Below are positions 1,112-25,867 of a DNA stretch of 35,613 bases, in pieces. Made by a program: the position numbers and the translations under genes. The stretch is from a virus. How positions within the stretch are numbered: the stretch's first letter is position 1; each line of letters starts with the position of its first letter. The notes under the pieces were generated by a model. It worked only from the letters and a program-made list of their open reading frames with translations, was not told the DNA's origin and did no database searches. The stretch is from the UHGV virus genome UHGV-0122175, one strand, 5' to 3'.

Positions 1112-1453
1112 TCAGCCAACATTGCGGCCTGATCGGGGTGATTTTTGGGTAATACCGATTGAAACCTGATCGCCCTCCGACTGAATAGAGCCATCAAGAG
1201 AGAGAGCCGGAGCAACCTGCCCGGCAGCGGGAAATGTTTTGTCGTGAAGTATCCACATAGTGTATTTTTCGAATCGCTCGACTTGGATTACTTTTTCTAC
1301 AACCTCAATGCGCGCAGGTTTATATCCAGACTCATAATTTCCTATAGTCCCTACAGAAACCCCCGTTACTTGCGAAAACTGAGATTGTGTAAGTTTTTCC
1401 GCATTTCTGATCGCCTTTAGTTTTTTGGCGTAATCTCTTGACATGTTCACCAT
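1112..1453 (-). CDS. C: Immunity repressor, P2 C-type (HTH)
   Basis: 113-aa ORF with a helix-turn-helix (LTQSQFSQVTGVSVGTIGNYESG). The tail (FEKYTMWILHDK...GQVAPAL) resembles P2 C as I recall it. It is divergent from the Cox-like gene. The true start may be the internal Met at codon 4. Confidence 0.75.
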   Translation of the reverse strand: MVNMSRDYAKKLKAIRNAEKLTQSQFSQVTGVSVGTIGNYESGYKPARIEVVEKVIQVERFEKYTMWILHDKTFPAAGQVAPALSLDGSIQSEGDQVSIGITQKSPRSGRNVG

Positions 1454-1556
1454 ACGATGAGTATCCTCTTTTTACTCTTCACCACAGGGTGAAGAAAACA
1501 AACCAAAACAAACCATCACAAGGCGCAACAAGCGCACCAACGCAAGAGGATAACAA
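1454..1556. promoter_or_regulatory. Divergent early/immunity switch region (Pe/Pc-like) with operator-like repeats
   Basis: 103-bp gap between divergent C and cox-like genes. Contains an inverted repeat CTTCACC-acag-GGTGAAG (1477..1494) and a tandem direct repeat AAAACAAACC x2 (1495..1514). An AGAGGA ribosome-binding site precedes the ATG at 1557. Confidence 0.45.
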
Positions 1557-1862
1557 ATGCGGGACTTCATTGCCGATAAAGAGTTATCTGACCACCAACC
1601 ACTTCAGGAAAGTGACGCACTCAGCGGATCCATTGATGCCGCCAACGACGACGAACACGAAGAAAACAAGAAAAAGCGTTCCTACAAAAAAGGAGCGACT
1701 TTACGGCTGGATGGTCCGATCGCCGGGCTTTGCTCTCTGGAAAAAGGCGCGGCATATATTGGGCTAACAAAATCTGCACTGCGCGTAGCCATTCATCGCG
1801 GTCAAATGCCGGGACACAAGACGCGCACAAACCCGGAAGATGAAAACTCAGACGGAGTATAG
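1557..1862 (+). CDS. Cox/excisionase-like HTH protein ending at an in-frame amber codon
   Basis: ATG with good Shine-Dalgarno sequence. Acidic N-terminal region, then an HTH (GAAYIGLTKSALRVAIHRGQMPG) resembling the Cox/Apl family. The frame stops at TAG 1860..1862 but stays open in the same frame to 2078 (WFNAKEWDKLADELPEHEPPEWHNW...). Confidence 0.5.
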   Translation: MRDFIADKELSDHQPLQESDALSGSIDAANDDEHEENKKKRSYKKGATLRLDGPIAGLCSLEKGAAYIGLTKSALRVAIHRGQMPGHKTRTNPEDENSDGV

Positions 1863-2082
1863 TGGTTTAACGCCAAAGAGTGGGACAAGTTGGCTGATGA
1901 GCTACCAGAGCACGAGCCCCCAGAATGGCACAACTGGAAAAGTTACTGGACGTATGACCGCCAGAAAAGGAAGTTCTCTCCAGCTAATAAAGAAGACTGC
2001 CAGACCATTAACGGTAAGCGAGTTTATACAGGCAGAAGCTCAAAACTGAACCAACTCAGAAACAACAGAGGCAACTAATCGT

Positions 2083-2505
2083 ATGAAAACAAACACGTCA
2101 GATTTCACAATAACTATTTCAAAAAATGACCAAGCATTAATTGATAACCTGAAATACCTTGCGGAAAAACATAATAACGGACGAATTGCAATTAATTTAC
2201 GACACATCACAGGAGTAACAATTGTAACCAGTTACTGGCATCTATATCTAATCGCTAAATCAGTACTGGAAAACAAAGATTCTGTTGTCAATGGAAGAGA
2301 TGTAGATACTCTTCCTGCACAAATCAAACCGATAGCCTATCAATTGCGTAATCGTTTTAAAAATGAAGGTGGGATTATATTTGACTTTCCCGCAGCTGTA
2401 GCCGTGAGCTTCTCTCGGGAGGATATACTTCACTCATTTCGTTTTGCTCTATCAGGTGACGAGACATTATGGCAGCTAGAAGATGCCGGGAGCAGCCCGG
2501 CATAA
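2083..2505 (+). CDS. Hypothetical protein (AT-rich accessory gene)
   Basis: 140-aa ORF in a markedly AT-rich stretch, unlike the phage backbone. A long ORF in AT-rich DNA is unlikely by chance. No family recognised. Confidence 0.55.
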   Translation: MKTNTSDFTITISKNDQALIDNLKYLAEKHNNGRIAINLRHITGVTIVTSYWHLYLIAKSVLENKDSVVNGRDVDTLPAQIKPIAYQLRNRFKNEGGIIFDFPAAVAVSFSREDILHSFRFALSGDETLWQLEDAGSSPA

Positions 2506-2511
2506 ATCAAA

Positions 2512-2703
2512 TTAAAAATCAACCAGTTGTGTGACAGGTGGGTATTTACGCTGAATTTTGTCAGTTACTAACGCCAGTAATATATGAATCTCTGCGTTTA
2601 ATGCGTCTTTATCACCCGTCGTTTTTACCCTAGGAGGGTTAATGTTATCCAGAGCAGCACTAAGGTCACTCAACAAATTAACAACTTTTTTATCTTCTGA
2701 CAT
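2512..2703 (-). CDS. Hypothetical small protein, convergent with the preceding ORF
   Basis: 63-aa ORF, AT-rich. Its stop lies 6 bp from the stop of the 2083..2505 ORF, so the two transcripts would overlap tail to tail. Confidence 0.4.
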   Translation of the reverse strand: MSEDKKVVNLLSDLSAALDNINPPRVKTTGDKDALNAEIHILLALVTDKIQRKYPPVTQLVDF

Positions 2704-2838
2704 GAAAACCTCTAAACAATTTAATTAAACATAAGCCAGGACCTGAACCGGCCAGTCCAAGTCCTAGACACACAAAAAATACCACAAATCAATACAAGGT
2801 GACACGAGTACACCTTACCGAAGGTACAGAGTTTTAAT

Positions 2839-3189
2839 ATGAAACTACAGCGCAATTCTTCACAGCAGCGCTTCCGCAACGGTGCGGAACGCCATGCTAA
2901 CCGTTTCGCTACCAGTGCATCACGTAGCAACTCTCGCTACAGCCTGAGCGAAACACACGCAACGCCGGATGGCTACCCCGTAAAACAAATCGGCGAGCAT
3001 ACCTGGCTGATTGAGAAAGCCGGAATCGTGGTCCACAAATGCCCGCGAAATCCGTTTACCGAAAACCGCATTTTTGCGCTGAGCAGCGGAGACAATCAGT
3101 TCGGACAGGATTTCACATTGTACGAAGCACTACGCACGGTTGATCGCCTGCTGCGTGGACAGAGTTTTATTAAACAGGCTGATTTATAA
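2839..3189 (+). CDS. Hypothetical early-region protein
   Basis: 116-aa ORF, first gene of a co-directional early cluster. No family recognised. Confidence 0.55.
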   Translation: MKLQRNSSQQRFRNGAERHANRFATSASRSNSRYSLSETHATPDGYPVKQIGEHTWLIEKAGIVVHKCPRNPFTENRIFALSSGDNQFGQDFTLYEALRTVDRLLRGQSFIKQADL

Positions 3190-3199
3190 CAGGTGCTTT

Positions 3200-3487
3200 A
3201 TGACTAAAGAACATACTCAGGGTGTATTTATCCGCTTTATTGATTTTCGCGGTGAACTGTTATTACGCGCATCCGCTATTGATGGAGTGGCTCCGGCGGG
3301 GAGAAACGGAACCGCTGAAGCCACTTACGTTTATCTGAACGGCACTCGACTGCTTGTGGAACTTCCGTACCAGAGCGTACGAGAAATCATTAGCGAAGCT
3401 GAAAAGGCACGTCAGGTTAATGGCGATAAACCCTATATCGAAATTATTTGTATGGATTCAGAAGCAGAAATCCAGAAGGCAGATTAA
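3200..3487 (+). CDS. Hypothetical early-region protein
   Basis: ATG at 3200 preceded by AGGTG (MTKEHTQGVFIRF...). Follows the previous stop by 10 bp. Confidence 0.55.
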   Translation: MTKEHTQGVFIRFIDFRGELLLRASAIDGVAPAGRNGTAEATYVYLNGTRLLVELPYQSVREIISEAEKARQVNGDKPYIEIICMDSEAEIQKAD

Positions 3488-5140: not shown

Positions 5141-5441
5141 AAAAAAACCGCTTGCCATGCCGCAATCAGTCAGGTTACATTTCCGCTGCACCTCATAAAA
5201 CGGGTGCCGGGATTCTCAACCCGATACAGAGCAAAGCGCATAACCGCGCAAGCGGTTTTTTTGTGCGTACCGTATTGCCACGTCTTTTTCGCGTCAGAAT
5301 TATGGCGGGGCGTACGGGGCCGACTTCGGTCGGGCCGGATTCTTTGCTCTCCGGTGTTGAGAACCCTGTACGTCTCGCCACCCCGAGATTCTCAACTCTG
5401 GATGGTGAGTTATTTCTATCACCGAGCAAAGAGGCCACACC
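5141..5441. other. Structured non-coding region (candidate ncRNA or regulatory element)
   Basis: About 300 bp without a convincing ORF. It holds a 15-bp long-range inverted repeat (5141..5155 vs 5248..5262), an imperfect 28-nt inverted repeat (5208..5236 vs 5342..5366), a CCGAC-TTCG-GTCGG hairpin and three copies of GATTCTCAAC. Confidence 0.35.
5242..5262 (+). terminator. Candidate intrinsic terminator
   Basis: AACCGC-gcaa-GCGGTT stem followed by a run of seven T. It lies downstream of the 4820..5119 gene. Confidence 0.4.
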
Positions 5442-5672
5442 ATGGCAAACCGCAAACAGCACCGCGCATACGCTGCGCGTCGTCACATCCAGACTGAAAT
5501 CAACCGCAGACTTTTCCGCGCATTCCGCGTCGCGCAAATCATGCACATCAATATGCTGCATGAGCGCAGTCACGCACTATCGAACAGCTATTCCGCCTCT
5601 GTTTTCAGCTATCTGGCGGATGATCTGCGCGAGCTTCAGCAGCTCATCCAGCAGCAAAACAAACTCCATTAA
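5442..5672 (+). CDS. Hypothetical basic protein
   Basis: 76 aa, AAAGAGG ribosome-binding site, Arg-rich N-terminus (MANRKQHRAYAARRHIQTEINRR). Confidence 0.5.
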   Translation: MANRKQHRAYAARRHIQTEINRRLFRAFRVAQIMHINMLHERSHALSNSYSASVFSYLADDLRELQQLIQQQNKLH

Positions 5673-9979: not shown

Positions 9980-10294
9980 ATGACGACTCCAACCAGACGG
10001 ATAAGTTTCTATCTGAAGCCAGCAGCCGTCAAGAGTGAACGAGAAGCGTGTAATTATCTCGACAGCCTGCCAGCCTCCGAACGCAGCCGCGCGCAACGCG
10101 CGGCATTTCTGGCTGGACTGGCGCTTATTAAAAGCGATCCCGCCTTTGCTTACTGGCTGGCTGAATGGCAGGAAGAGGAAGCAATACCACCAAGAAATAA
10201 CATCCGAAACAAGCATACTGGCACATCTGCAACAGAAAACAGTCACAGTAAGAGCCAGTTAAAAAGGAACATTCAGGAGTTTTTCCCAGAATAA
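9980..10294 (+). CDS. parR: ParR-like centromere-binding adaptor
   Basis: 105 aa from ATG 9980, with AAGGAG upstream, directly after parM. The segment YLDSLPASERSRAQRAAFLAGLAL resembles R1 ParR (LDSIPQGERSRLNRAALTAGLAL, from memory). Confidence 0.65.
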   Translation: MTTPTRRISFYLKPAAVKSEREACNYLDSLPASERSRAQRAAFLAGLALIKSDPAFAYWLAEWQEEEAIPPRNNIRNKHTGTSATENSHSKSQLKRNIQEFFPE

Positions 10295-10300
10295 CCTACA

Positions 10301-10325
10301 AACACCCTTCACGGGTGTTTTTTCA
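10301..10325 (+). terminator. Intrinsic terminator after the parMR-like operon
   Basis: AACACCC-ttcac-GGGTGTT stem followed by TTTTTT. Confidence 0.6.
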
Positions 10326-10339
10326 TGTTTACCCTAATA

Positions 10340-10381
10340 ATCGATCTGTTAAACAGATAGATATTGATTTATCTATCGATT
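10340..10381. promoter_or_regulatory. Operator-like cluster of palindromes upstream of the orphan genes
   Basis: ATCTGTT-A-AACAGAT and ATAGATA-n6-TATCTAT inverted repeats, bracketed by ATCGAT. A TTGACA -35-like hexamer follows at 10398..10403. Confidence 0.3.
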
Positions 10382-10470
10382 AAAACGATCAATACCCTTG
10401 ACAGTTGTATGGGATTTTGTAGGATCGATCACGATATGACCACTTTGTTTGTGTGTCATGCATAGGAAAA

Positions 10471-10498
10471 CGCCCCAATAGCGGTAACTATTGGGGCG
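10471..10498. other. Perfect 11-bp stem-loop
   Basis: CGCCCCAATAG-cggtaa-CTATTGGGGCG. On the minus strand it is followed by TTTTCC, which looks like a terminator. On the plus strand it would sit in the 5' UTR of the 10604 gene. Confidence 0.35.
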
Positions 10499-10603
10499 CC
10501 AAAGAAATCGAGGTGTCATCTACCTCTTGAGCTCGCCGGAATCGTATTTTCTGCGTGTGCCCATGTAAAGGTGAACACCTCATTTTATTGAGGTAAATCA
10601 AAT

Positions 10604-10882
10604 ATGGGTATAAAGATTTGTAAAAACTCCCACCGATACAACCCCCAATACTCACACCTTCCCGATAACCAGGGACAGACAGGCCGCCACCGCTGCGCTG
10701 CCTGCGCATACGAGCTTGGTGTACTTCACGCAATGATCGGTATTCCTAAAGCTAAAGATGATTCCTTCCTGGCAAATATTCCATATAGCCAGGCTGGCAC
10801 AGTCAGACATAAAGACGCCTTTGAGGCATACATGCTTGGGTACGACTATGCAATGAGCAGCGCACTGCTCAAAGCTGCATAA
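10604..10882 (+). CDS. Hypothetical protein (orphan gene 1 in the A-Q hotspot)
   Basis: 92 aa, GAGGT ribosome-binding site, lower GC than the backbone. Contains a Cys/His cluster (CKNSH...HRCAAC). No family recognised. Confidence 0.5.
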   Translation: MGIKICKNSHRYNPQYSHLPDNQGQTGRHRCAACAYELGVLHAMIGIPKAKDDSFLANIPYSQAGTVRHKDAFEAYMLGYDYAMSSALLKAA

Positions 10883-11560: not shown

Positions 11561-11934
11561 TTTTTTGAACGACTTTTTGCCCTTCCGGCCCGCATGGCGG
11601 CTGGATCCGTCAGGGATCCGTGCGTGCACAAAAAAACGCGCTTTTTCTGCGCGCAGGTGACGGGGGAACAGCCCGCGTTTCAGGGGGTAAATAGCATTCC
11701 CTGAACGATGTCGCAGAGATACAACAGAATGGCTGTCTTTCTCACGCTGAGCGTGAAAAAGACGTGAGGGCTTTTGATTTGATGGGGTGGCAGATAAGGC
11801 CGTCAAAATCGCACTGAGGCGGCGAGAACATGCAGTCAGCGCGATGGGATTGCGTAAGAGCCTGACCGCCGATGATGGCAATAAGCTGGAAGGCGTCGTG
11901 AAATTATCTGATTGATACAGGAGCTGGAGAGTCG

Positions 11935-25339: not shown

Positions 25340-25867
25340 ATGCAGCACTAAAAAAATATCAGGTCAGGAAACCCAAAGACAAAAGAGCAATACCAATTAA
25401 CAAAGAATTTTGACGTAATCTGGTTGTGGTCTGAAGACGGAAAAAACTGGTATGAGGAAGTGAAAAACTTTCAACCAGACACAATAAAGATTGTTTACGA
25501 TGAAAATAATATTATTGTCGCCATCACCAAAGATGCATCCACGCTTAACCCTGAAGGTTTTAGCGTCGTTGAGGTTCCCGATATTACAGCCAACCGCCGC
25601 GCTGATGATTCAGGAAAGTGGATGTTTAAGGATGGAGCTGTAGTTAAACGGATTTATACGGCAGACGAACAGCAACAACAAGCTGAATCACAAAAGGCCG
25701 CATTGCTTTCCGAAGCTGAATCAGTCATCCAGCCGCTGGAACGCGCTGTCAGGCTGAATATGGCAACAGACGAGGAACGCACACGACTGGAAGCATGGGA
25801 ACGCTACAGTGTTCTGGTCAGCCGTGTGGATACGGCAAATCCTGAATGGCCACAAAAGCCTGAATAA
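25340..25867 (+). CDS. G: Tail fibre assembly chaperone G (expressed orientation), with in-frame TAA at codon 4
   Basis: ATG 25340, CAG, CAC, then TAA (25349..25351). The frame reopens and matches G' residue for residue ([36 protein letters not shown]). The ORF track restarts at TTG 25424. Confidence 0.6.

Follow-up and report, generated by a model that had tools for sequence, protein, structure and literature searches.

The stretch of DNA analysed here (the window, 35,613 nt) is a P88-like P2-family prophage of E. coli that lies between dmsA, on the side of the integrase gene, and serS, on the side of hok and ogr, as it does in strain NU14. The integrase and HTH_3 repressor genes occupy the minus strand and cox starts on the plus strand beyond a 103-bp gap (Table 1), an arrangement known from P2, where cox opens the early operon, runs divergently from C and lies next to int, with a switch region of ∼100–110 bp (PMC3936717). 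In the window an amber codon splits cox in two. Its 5′ part encodes a conserved N-terminal tip (MRDFIADKELSD), a disordered acidic linker and, of the winged-helix domain, β1–α1–turn–α2–β2 and the wing loop, while the 3′ part encodes the remainder of strand β3, helix α3, a Trp-rich conserved segment and a basic tail; for this 3′ part translation from the cox start is lost.

Table 1. Features of the cox region and of a second interrupted gene (positions in the window)
Feature	Position	Strand	Description and basis
Tyrosine integrase (Int_N + Phage_integrase)	50–1042	−	Intact; 100% identical to the NU14 protein
Immunity repressor, C-type (HTH_3)	1112–1453	−	Divergent from cox; 100% identical to the NU14 protein
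Promoter-like site	1438–1467	+	Sequence prediction
TTCACC...GGTGAA repeats (TTCACCAnAnGnTGA, direct and inverted)	1446–1502 (1446–1460, 1478–1492, 1488–1502)		Candidate repressor operators
Repressor–cox switch region	1454–1556		103 bp
Tandem AAAACAAACC (two copies)	1495–1514		10-bp spacing, one helical turn apart; candidate Cox boxes
Shine-Dalgarno AAGAGGA	1544–1550	+	6–7 nt 5′ of the cox ATG; direct sequence reading
cox 5′ fragment, codons 1–101	1557–1859	+	ORF list, translation, PHROG 23196 positions 1–101, model
Premature amber codon TAG	1860–1862	+	From TGG (Trp102), G→A at 1861; alignment with NU14 and CD45
cox 3′ fragment, codons 103–173 and TAA	1863–2078	+	Translation, PHROG 23196 positions 103–173, conservation, model
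In-frame restart codon TTG, codon 112	1890–1892	+	Sole candidate after the stop; potential 62-aa product
First early-operon gene 3′ of cox, 140 aa	2083–2505	+	Intact; no assigned function
Tail-fibre assembly gene (tfa), second premature stop	25340–25867	+	TAA at 25349–25351, codon 4 (MQH*KNI...); TTA (Leu) in P88, NU14 and WEM25

The repeats and the promoter-like site between repressor and cox fit a P2-type switch, with putative roles as given in Table 1; the repeats themselves are unlike the P2 cox-box consensus TTAAA(G/C)NC(A/C). The module of int, repressor and cox shares 92% identity with vB_EcoM-705R2 and vB_EcoM-569R5, where the gene is annotated as 'regulatory protein', and the immunity module of P88 differs from that of the window. 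A mosaic junction lies inside cox itself, at about 1862–1887 (nt 306–331 of the gene): alleles of the type found on contigs L008 and L023 agree fully with the window for their first 304 nt, then differ by ∼10% and are followed by other downstream genes, from which it follows that the DNA-recognition half travels with the repressor and its operators, whereas the C-terminal half goes along with the early operon. Further out, both flanks carry a 20-bp sequence able to form a hairpin (AAAGCGCCCGCAGGCGCTTT), at ∼1390–1410 of contig L007 (attL, between dmsA and int) and at ∼1460–1480 of the NU14 prophage region L042 (attR, between hok and serS), and this is the probable att core; the window begins and ends just inside these candidates. 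A match to AACAAACC near attL was considered as a Cox box and dropped, being on the bacterial side of the att core. Also, Rfam models place isrK (63 bits, 5188–5262, plus strand) and a C4 antisense RNA (78.5 bits, 5298–5385, plus strand) in tandem just upstream of a homologue of the P88 'derepression protein' (5442–5669), a layout reminiscent of the c4–ant immunity module of P1/P7.

An earlier, sequence-only reading of this DNA had described a TAG that splits the open reading frame while the frame itself goes on behind it. Sequence, ORF list and translation agree with both its coordinates and its description: 71 sense codons follow the stop (WFNAKEWDKLADELPEHEPPEWHNWKSYW...NRGN; WFNAKEWDKL...NRGN) before a TAA is reached at 2076–2078. 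By our own arithmetic a random frame would stay open over 71 codons with a chance of ∼3% ((61/64)^71), and we base the one-gene reading on homology, which is stronger evidence than the length of an open frame. Open reading frames on the opposite strand or in other frames (1621–1830 and 1802–1933 on the minus strand, 1840–2049 on the plus strand) were dropped, as the annotation of no relative supports them.

Annotated relatives with 75–99.8% nucleotide identity to the window were opened for comparison (NU14/UTI89, CD45, A36, STEC2018-607, Ch1 and JNEC-KY172). The intact gene is in these a single CDS of 522–528 nt, mostly annotated as 'Cox family DNA-binding protein', and in all relatives examined this one CDS, with a product of 170–176 aa (typically 173 aa), spans the stop site and has TGG (Trp) at the position of the window's TAG. 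Protein families give the same picture. The 174-position profile of PHROG 23196 matches the repaired protein over positions 1–173, the two pieces falling on 1–101 and 103–173, and the Pfam domain Phage_Cox (PF10743) matches residues 58–129 of the joined protein (model positions 11–86 of 87) right across the stop, with a score just above the cut-off of 27.5 bits (31.2 bits with Trp at 102, 30.1 bits with Gln at the stop). When the 101-aa and 71-aa pieces were compared singly with the local Pfam (PF10743.14), nothing meaningful matched, and the 101-aa piece gave no hit at E ≤ 1. A precomputed table based on PF10743.16 does list Phage_Cox for the 101-aa fragment; the two versions of the Pfam model differ on this long-form subfamily.

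The sequence-only reading took the locus for a single gene broken by a nonsense mutation, and the relatives bear this out, having one CDS that spans the stop and TGG in its place. The alignment with homologues that it proposed as a check was run, and homologues do not end at the stop, nor is the downstream segment a separate gene. One could instead suppose a short HTH protein with an independent gene behind it, since the 101-aa ORF figures as a gene in the output of gene callers and since the TTG at 1890 could in principle initiate a protein of its own; the comparative data refute this arrangement, and we leave it next to no probability. The CDS is continuous in every relative, the Pfam domain and the PHROG profile both bridge the junction, the TTG has no convincing Shine-Dalgarno sequence or good ribosome-binding site upstream, and its 62-aa product is absent from public called-protein records.

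The lesion amounts to one base. Window and cox of E. coli CD45 are identical at 521 of 522 nt, the only difference being the G→A at 1861 that turns TGG (Trp102) into TAG, and cox of NU14, aligned with both, also has TGG at codon 102. The window copy thus qualifies as a pseudogene: its orthologues have a sense codon at 102 and a continuous frame, and it is a single base away from the intact CD45 allele. The TAG allele was absent from 5,426 complete E. coli genomes, among which 357 carry the region (best match 99.8%). We also ran a stop-agnostic scan, in which codon 102 of the search pattern was left free (NNN), over IMG/VR, JGI metagenomes and species-representative genomes; it returned 27 loci (21 + 5 + 1) with TGG in 27/27 and a stop at codon 102 in 0/27. 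Judged by these sequences, TAG at codon 102 is a rare, derived state, and since no other change has accumulated in the gene the mutation is recent.

That an allele is one base away from a common intact one and missing from all 5,426 complete genomes might be the mark of a sequencing or assembly error, the true codon being TGG and the gene intact. We find this very improbable. The same TAG allele stands in the Logan re-assembly of SRR413694, whose 51.6-kb contig (L007) matches the window without a single difference, and with the TAG, throughout their overlap of 4,862 bases, although SRR413694 is possibly the window's own read set and the support is then that of a re-assembly, not of an independent isolate; the contig most simply represents the same strain or clone. 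Also, the site is no homopolymer or other error-prone context (sequence GTATAGTGG), and the exact 101-aa product is found on 11 contigs (JGI/IMG, Logan, ENA), several of which merely end at codon 101 and are uninformative on codon 102. As for the origin of the change, a deamination hotspot at a Dcm site (CCWGG) was dropped, there being no such site in the context GTATGGTGG.

Five public contigs from different samples (L010–L014) all end at codon 101 of cox (+0 or +1 nt). We rejected within-sample polymorphism as an unproven explanation of these ends, since contigs of this kind are what the look-up selects for and partial products occur just as often at many other lengths. They are probably a selection effect of the exact-product look-up, to which branching of the assembly graph at a mosaic or SNP site may possibly contribute.

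What the intact gene encodes can be judged from its family. A homologue search returned 64 clusters from Escherichia, Shigella, Yersinia, Salmonella and Serratia, in which full-length members are mostly 166–192 aa long and nearly all have a precomputed PF10743 hit. This long-form Cox subfamily occurs widely among enterobacteria, and Pfam, PHROGs and RefSeq already recognise it. In its alignment the N-terminal tip (M-x-x-F-IADKELSD) is conserved, residues ∼13–45 are variable, acidic and different in length, and the helix-turn-helix region is conserved again; the best-conserved stretch runs from Trp102 to about residue 165 (WWFNAKEWD-LADELPE-EPPEWHNWKSYWTYDR-KRKF...KEDC...GKRVY), and Trp102 itself is conserved at ≥90% within the subfamily. 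The acidic N-terminal extension of 45 residues, which had been called unusual from the sequence of the window, is indeed present, but it is conserved across the subfamily and has a comparable counterpart in Cox of P88.

The AlphaFold model of an intact homologue (P0017) is only moderately confident (mean pLDDT 56): its core (residues ∼55–118) reaches 63–82, residues 1–50 are disordered and what follows residue 118 is of low confidence. The predicted elements are β1 (58–60), α1 (61–68), α2 (72–80), β2 (86–89), an 11-residue loop, β3 (101–105) and α3 (106–115), and Trp102 would sit in the wing strand β3. A long β2–β3 wing loop followed by C-terminal helices points, with moderate confidence, to a winged-helix fold. 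[quoted passage not shown] The HTH that the sequence-only reading saw in this gene is, by Pfam, model and Foldseek, the helix-turn-helix of the winged-helix Cox domain; the parallel that it drew to P2 Cox and its Trp-rich C-terminal half also holds in broad terms, given a Pfam match that crosses the stop and 4LHF as the best structural match.

Comparison by sequence is less telling. When PDB chains were searched with the repaired protein and with the family profile, no Cox was found and nothing was significant, and an hhalign comparison of the family profile with one P2-like Cox gave Prob 0.03, a value that is uninformative with a single sequence as template; its register was taken as no more than a lead. 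NCBIfam produced sub-threshold hits only (excisionase family TIGR01764, 13.4–14.9 bits versus a cut-off of 28.8). Because comparisons by sequence with PDB chains or a single Cox are not significant, we class the gene with the Cox family as a divergent, long-form member and not as a typical one. MAFFT pairs Trp103, the neighbour of Trp102, with the Cox-family aromatic, and for this reason we limit what we say of Trp102 to its place in the predicted strand β3 and its conservation within the subfamily. The Cox in the record named 'Peduovirus P2' (NC_070904.1) is one that we take to be a variant and not the canonical P2 sequence. The role of the long-form subfamily as excisionase and Pc repressor would be the one transferred, by analogy, from P2, Wφ and 186.

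With TAG at codon 102, translation of Cox ends after residue 101 unless the stop is suppressed. Suppression by a host amber suppressor tRNA, or near-cognate read-through, might yield full-length Cox enough for function, possibly at a lower dose, and the presence of TGA at the identical Trp codon in another lineage, UGA being leaky in E. coli and decoded there as Trp, together with a 3′ part of cox that shows no further decay, could be read as signs of such a bypass. However, a recent mutation explains the lack of further decay equally well, no tRNA is encoded in the window, and the stop is not conserved (0/27 stop-agnostic loci, 0/357 carrier genomes), so that it is not a programmed feature of the cox family; no Rfam element was found at the cox locus either. 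Suppressors are uncommon among natural isolates, and termination at UAG is comparatively efficient when a U comes next. We regard bypass of the stop as quite unlikely, and the read-through by a suppressor that the sequence-only reading had offered as an alternative receives no support from a window devoid of tRNA genes.

We therefore favour, with a probability of about 0.8, a recent nonsense pseudogenisation of cox in an otherwise nearly intact P2-family prophage, with probable stranding of the element. The truncated Cox would keep β1–α1–α2–β2 and the wing loop and lose β3, α3 and the whole conserved C-terminal region. P2 Cox acts as a repressor of Pc and as the directionality factor in excision; its C-terminal region drives oligomerisation, loss of the last 20 residues abolishes activity, the mutants W81A and W84A are inactive, and cox-defective P2 prophages show no spontaneous phage release (PMC3936717). 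By analogy with this genetics the truncated protein would be null, and without functional Cox there would be neither shut-off of the repressor promoter nor directed excision, leaving a prophage that is probably stranded in the chromosome by its broken cox, still expresses repressor and integrase and gives few or no free phage. That a truncated Cox could lock the prophage in place, as the sequence-only reading proposed, would be a reasonable expectation from the genetics of P2. Also, the 216 nt left untranslated may reduce expression of downstream early genes, including that at 2083–2505, via Rho-dependent polarity.

Nearly every gene of the P88 and NU14 prophages has a full-length, stop-free counterpart in the window, the exceptions being cox, tfa and an ORF of 47 codons. 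The second premature stop, in tfa, fits early mutational decay of the prophage. The broken tfa belongs to an invertible tail-fibre segment and has no downstream Met nearby; as the alternative tfa (26429–25899, minus strand) is intact, a working fibre chaperone is available in only one orientation of the segment. The third exception (11624–11767, plus strand) is the counterpart of a hypothetical P88 ORF (gp21) and has TGA at codon 27 versus TTA in P88; it is probably not a real gene. In the NU14/UTI89 prophage (L042, regions 2387–3240 and 10146–10643), the nearest relative in a complete genome, cox is intact, a gpD-like gene is shortened (266 aa, where P88 and the window both have 366 aa) and two pseudogenes are annotated. 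To judge by such alleles, decay is affecting different genes in different copies of this prophage.

Other broken alleles of cox exist. Two ENA metagenome contigs (L008, 3001–3522; L009, 626–1147) have TGA at the Trp102 codon, in a variant of the gene with 22 differing positions in its 3′ part. The intact form of this variant, with TGG, is present at three IMG/VR loci (L023, L024 and L031) as well as in UMNK88 and many porcine ETEC, one mismatch from L008, and the TGA allele itself is missing from the complete E. coli genomes (311 carriers, best match 99.8%). Sequence comparison thus makes TGA at codon 102 a nonsense mutation independent of TAG. A further metagenome contig (L039, from ERZ1027095) has an in-frame stop at cox codon 119 (...ELPEH*PPEW...), and public protein sets contain versions of 157, 142 and 144 aa with altered C-termini (P0002, P0004 and P0008), which look like frameshifts or junctions.

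A double hit at codon 102 was not accepted as a hotspot, the look-up being biased in position and Trp codons being easy nonsense targets. Independent lesions in several lineages (TAG and TGA at codon 102, the stop at codon 119, the products of 142, 144 and 157 aa) and a prophage that is otherwise intact, repressor and integrase included, might still suggest that truncation is selected, either for an immobile but immunity-conferring prophage or for a functional 101-aa fragment, which might for instance bind DNA in a dominant-negative manner and so block induction, with codon 102 favoured. We consider this unlikely. The coincidence in position is biased because the TGA allele was found via look-up of the exact 101-aa product; Trp codons are the ones most readily turned into stops by a G→A change, and the intact gene has six of them; broken alleles are rare, with the 101-aa product on 11 contigs versus identical copies of two intact sequences on 159 and ≥1000 contigs; TAG and TGA alleles are each one mutation from an intact allele, as is expected of short-lived variants that do not spread; and, according to the model, the 101-aa fragment would miss one strand of its own β-sheet, which makes stable folding doubtful. 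Highly unlikely, in our view, is a stop at Trp102 as a recurrent, selected route of prophage domestication in E. coli, in which a leaky stop leaves a trickle of full-length Cox. If this were true, spontaneous induction would be lowered while immunity and cargo genes were kept, a benefit for the host that comes without the risk of lysis.

Under the preferred reading, a recent loss of cox with probable stranding, the lesion is ordinary early prophage decay and not a new kind of element, defective prophages being commonplace; a search of the literature turned up no relevant account of natural prophages with a nonsense allele of cox. By its gene content this prophage would be scored as 'intact', yet its switch and excision gene is broken and it is probably neither inducible nor mobile. 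For annotation, a single pseudogene should be entered that covers the 101-aa ORF together with the open frame that follows. The fact that cox is broken differently in several lineages offers a small but concrete example of how P2-family prophages start to decay.

Of the known systems P2 Cox (91 aa, 4LHF, PF10743) is the natural point of reference. Both genes come first in the early operon and have int and a divergent C repressor gene as neighbours, the repaired protein passes the Pfam cut-off and finds its best structural match in 4LHF, and both proteins have a Trp-rich region after the wing. The predicted core shares the element order of P2 Cox, which is β1–α1–T–α2–β2–L–β3–α3–α4 (PMC3936717). 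The P2 Cox family is further marked by binding to repeated cox boxes at Pe–Pc and at att and by assembly into filaments via the C-terminal region; possible counterparts here are the candidate repeats of the switch region and the conserved C-terminal half with its predicted α3. In contrast to P2 Cox, the repaired protein is about twice as long (173 aa, domain at ∼55–130) where a small protein of ∼90 aa has its winged helix in the N-terminal half; it has an N-terminal extension of ∼50 residues, made of the conserved tip and the acidic disordered linker, and a conserved basic tail of ∼45 residues in which short strands are predicted where P2 Cox has a simple α4. Sequence identity is ∼20%, and the Pfam score of 31 bits compares with 84–97 for typical members. 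It should be noted that Cox of P88, a strong member of Phage_Cox (97 bits), is also extended, with 141 aa, its domain at 40–120 and ∼40 extra N-terminal residues, so size is no strict criterion of the family.

Closest of all are the orthologues WP_001204237 and WP_001204238 of E. coli CD45 and NU14/UTI89 (PHROG 23196), which share both neighbourhood and insertion site with the window gene and differ in being intact, with TGG at codon 102 where the window has TAG. [quoted passage not shown] Excisionase structures of this kind of directionality factor are among the fold matches of the intact protein, although families and lengths differ. In its probable state the prophage resembles the cox-defective P2 prophages (cox3, for example) and defective or 'grounded' prophages in general, in which a lysogen likewise carries a disabled cox gene; cox3 and its like, however, are laboratory mutants of P2, whereas the window has a natural allele of a P88-like phage.
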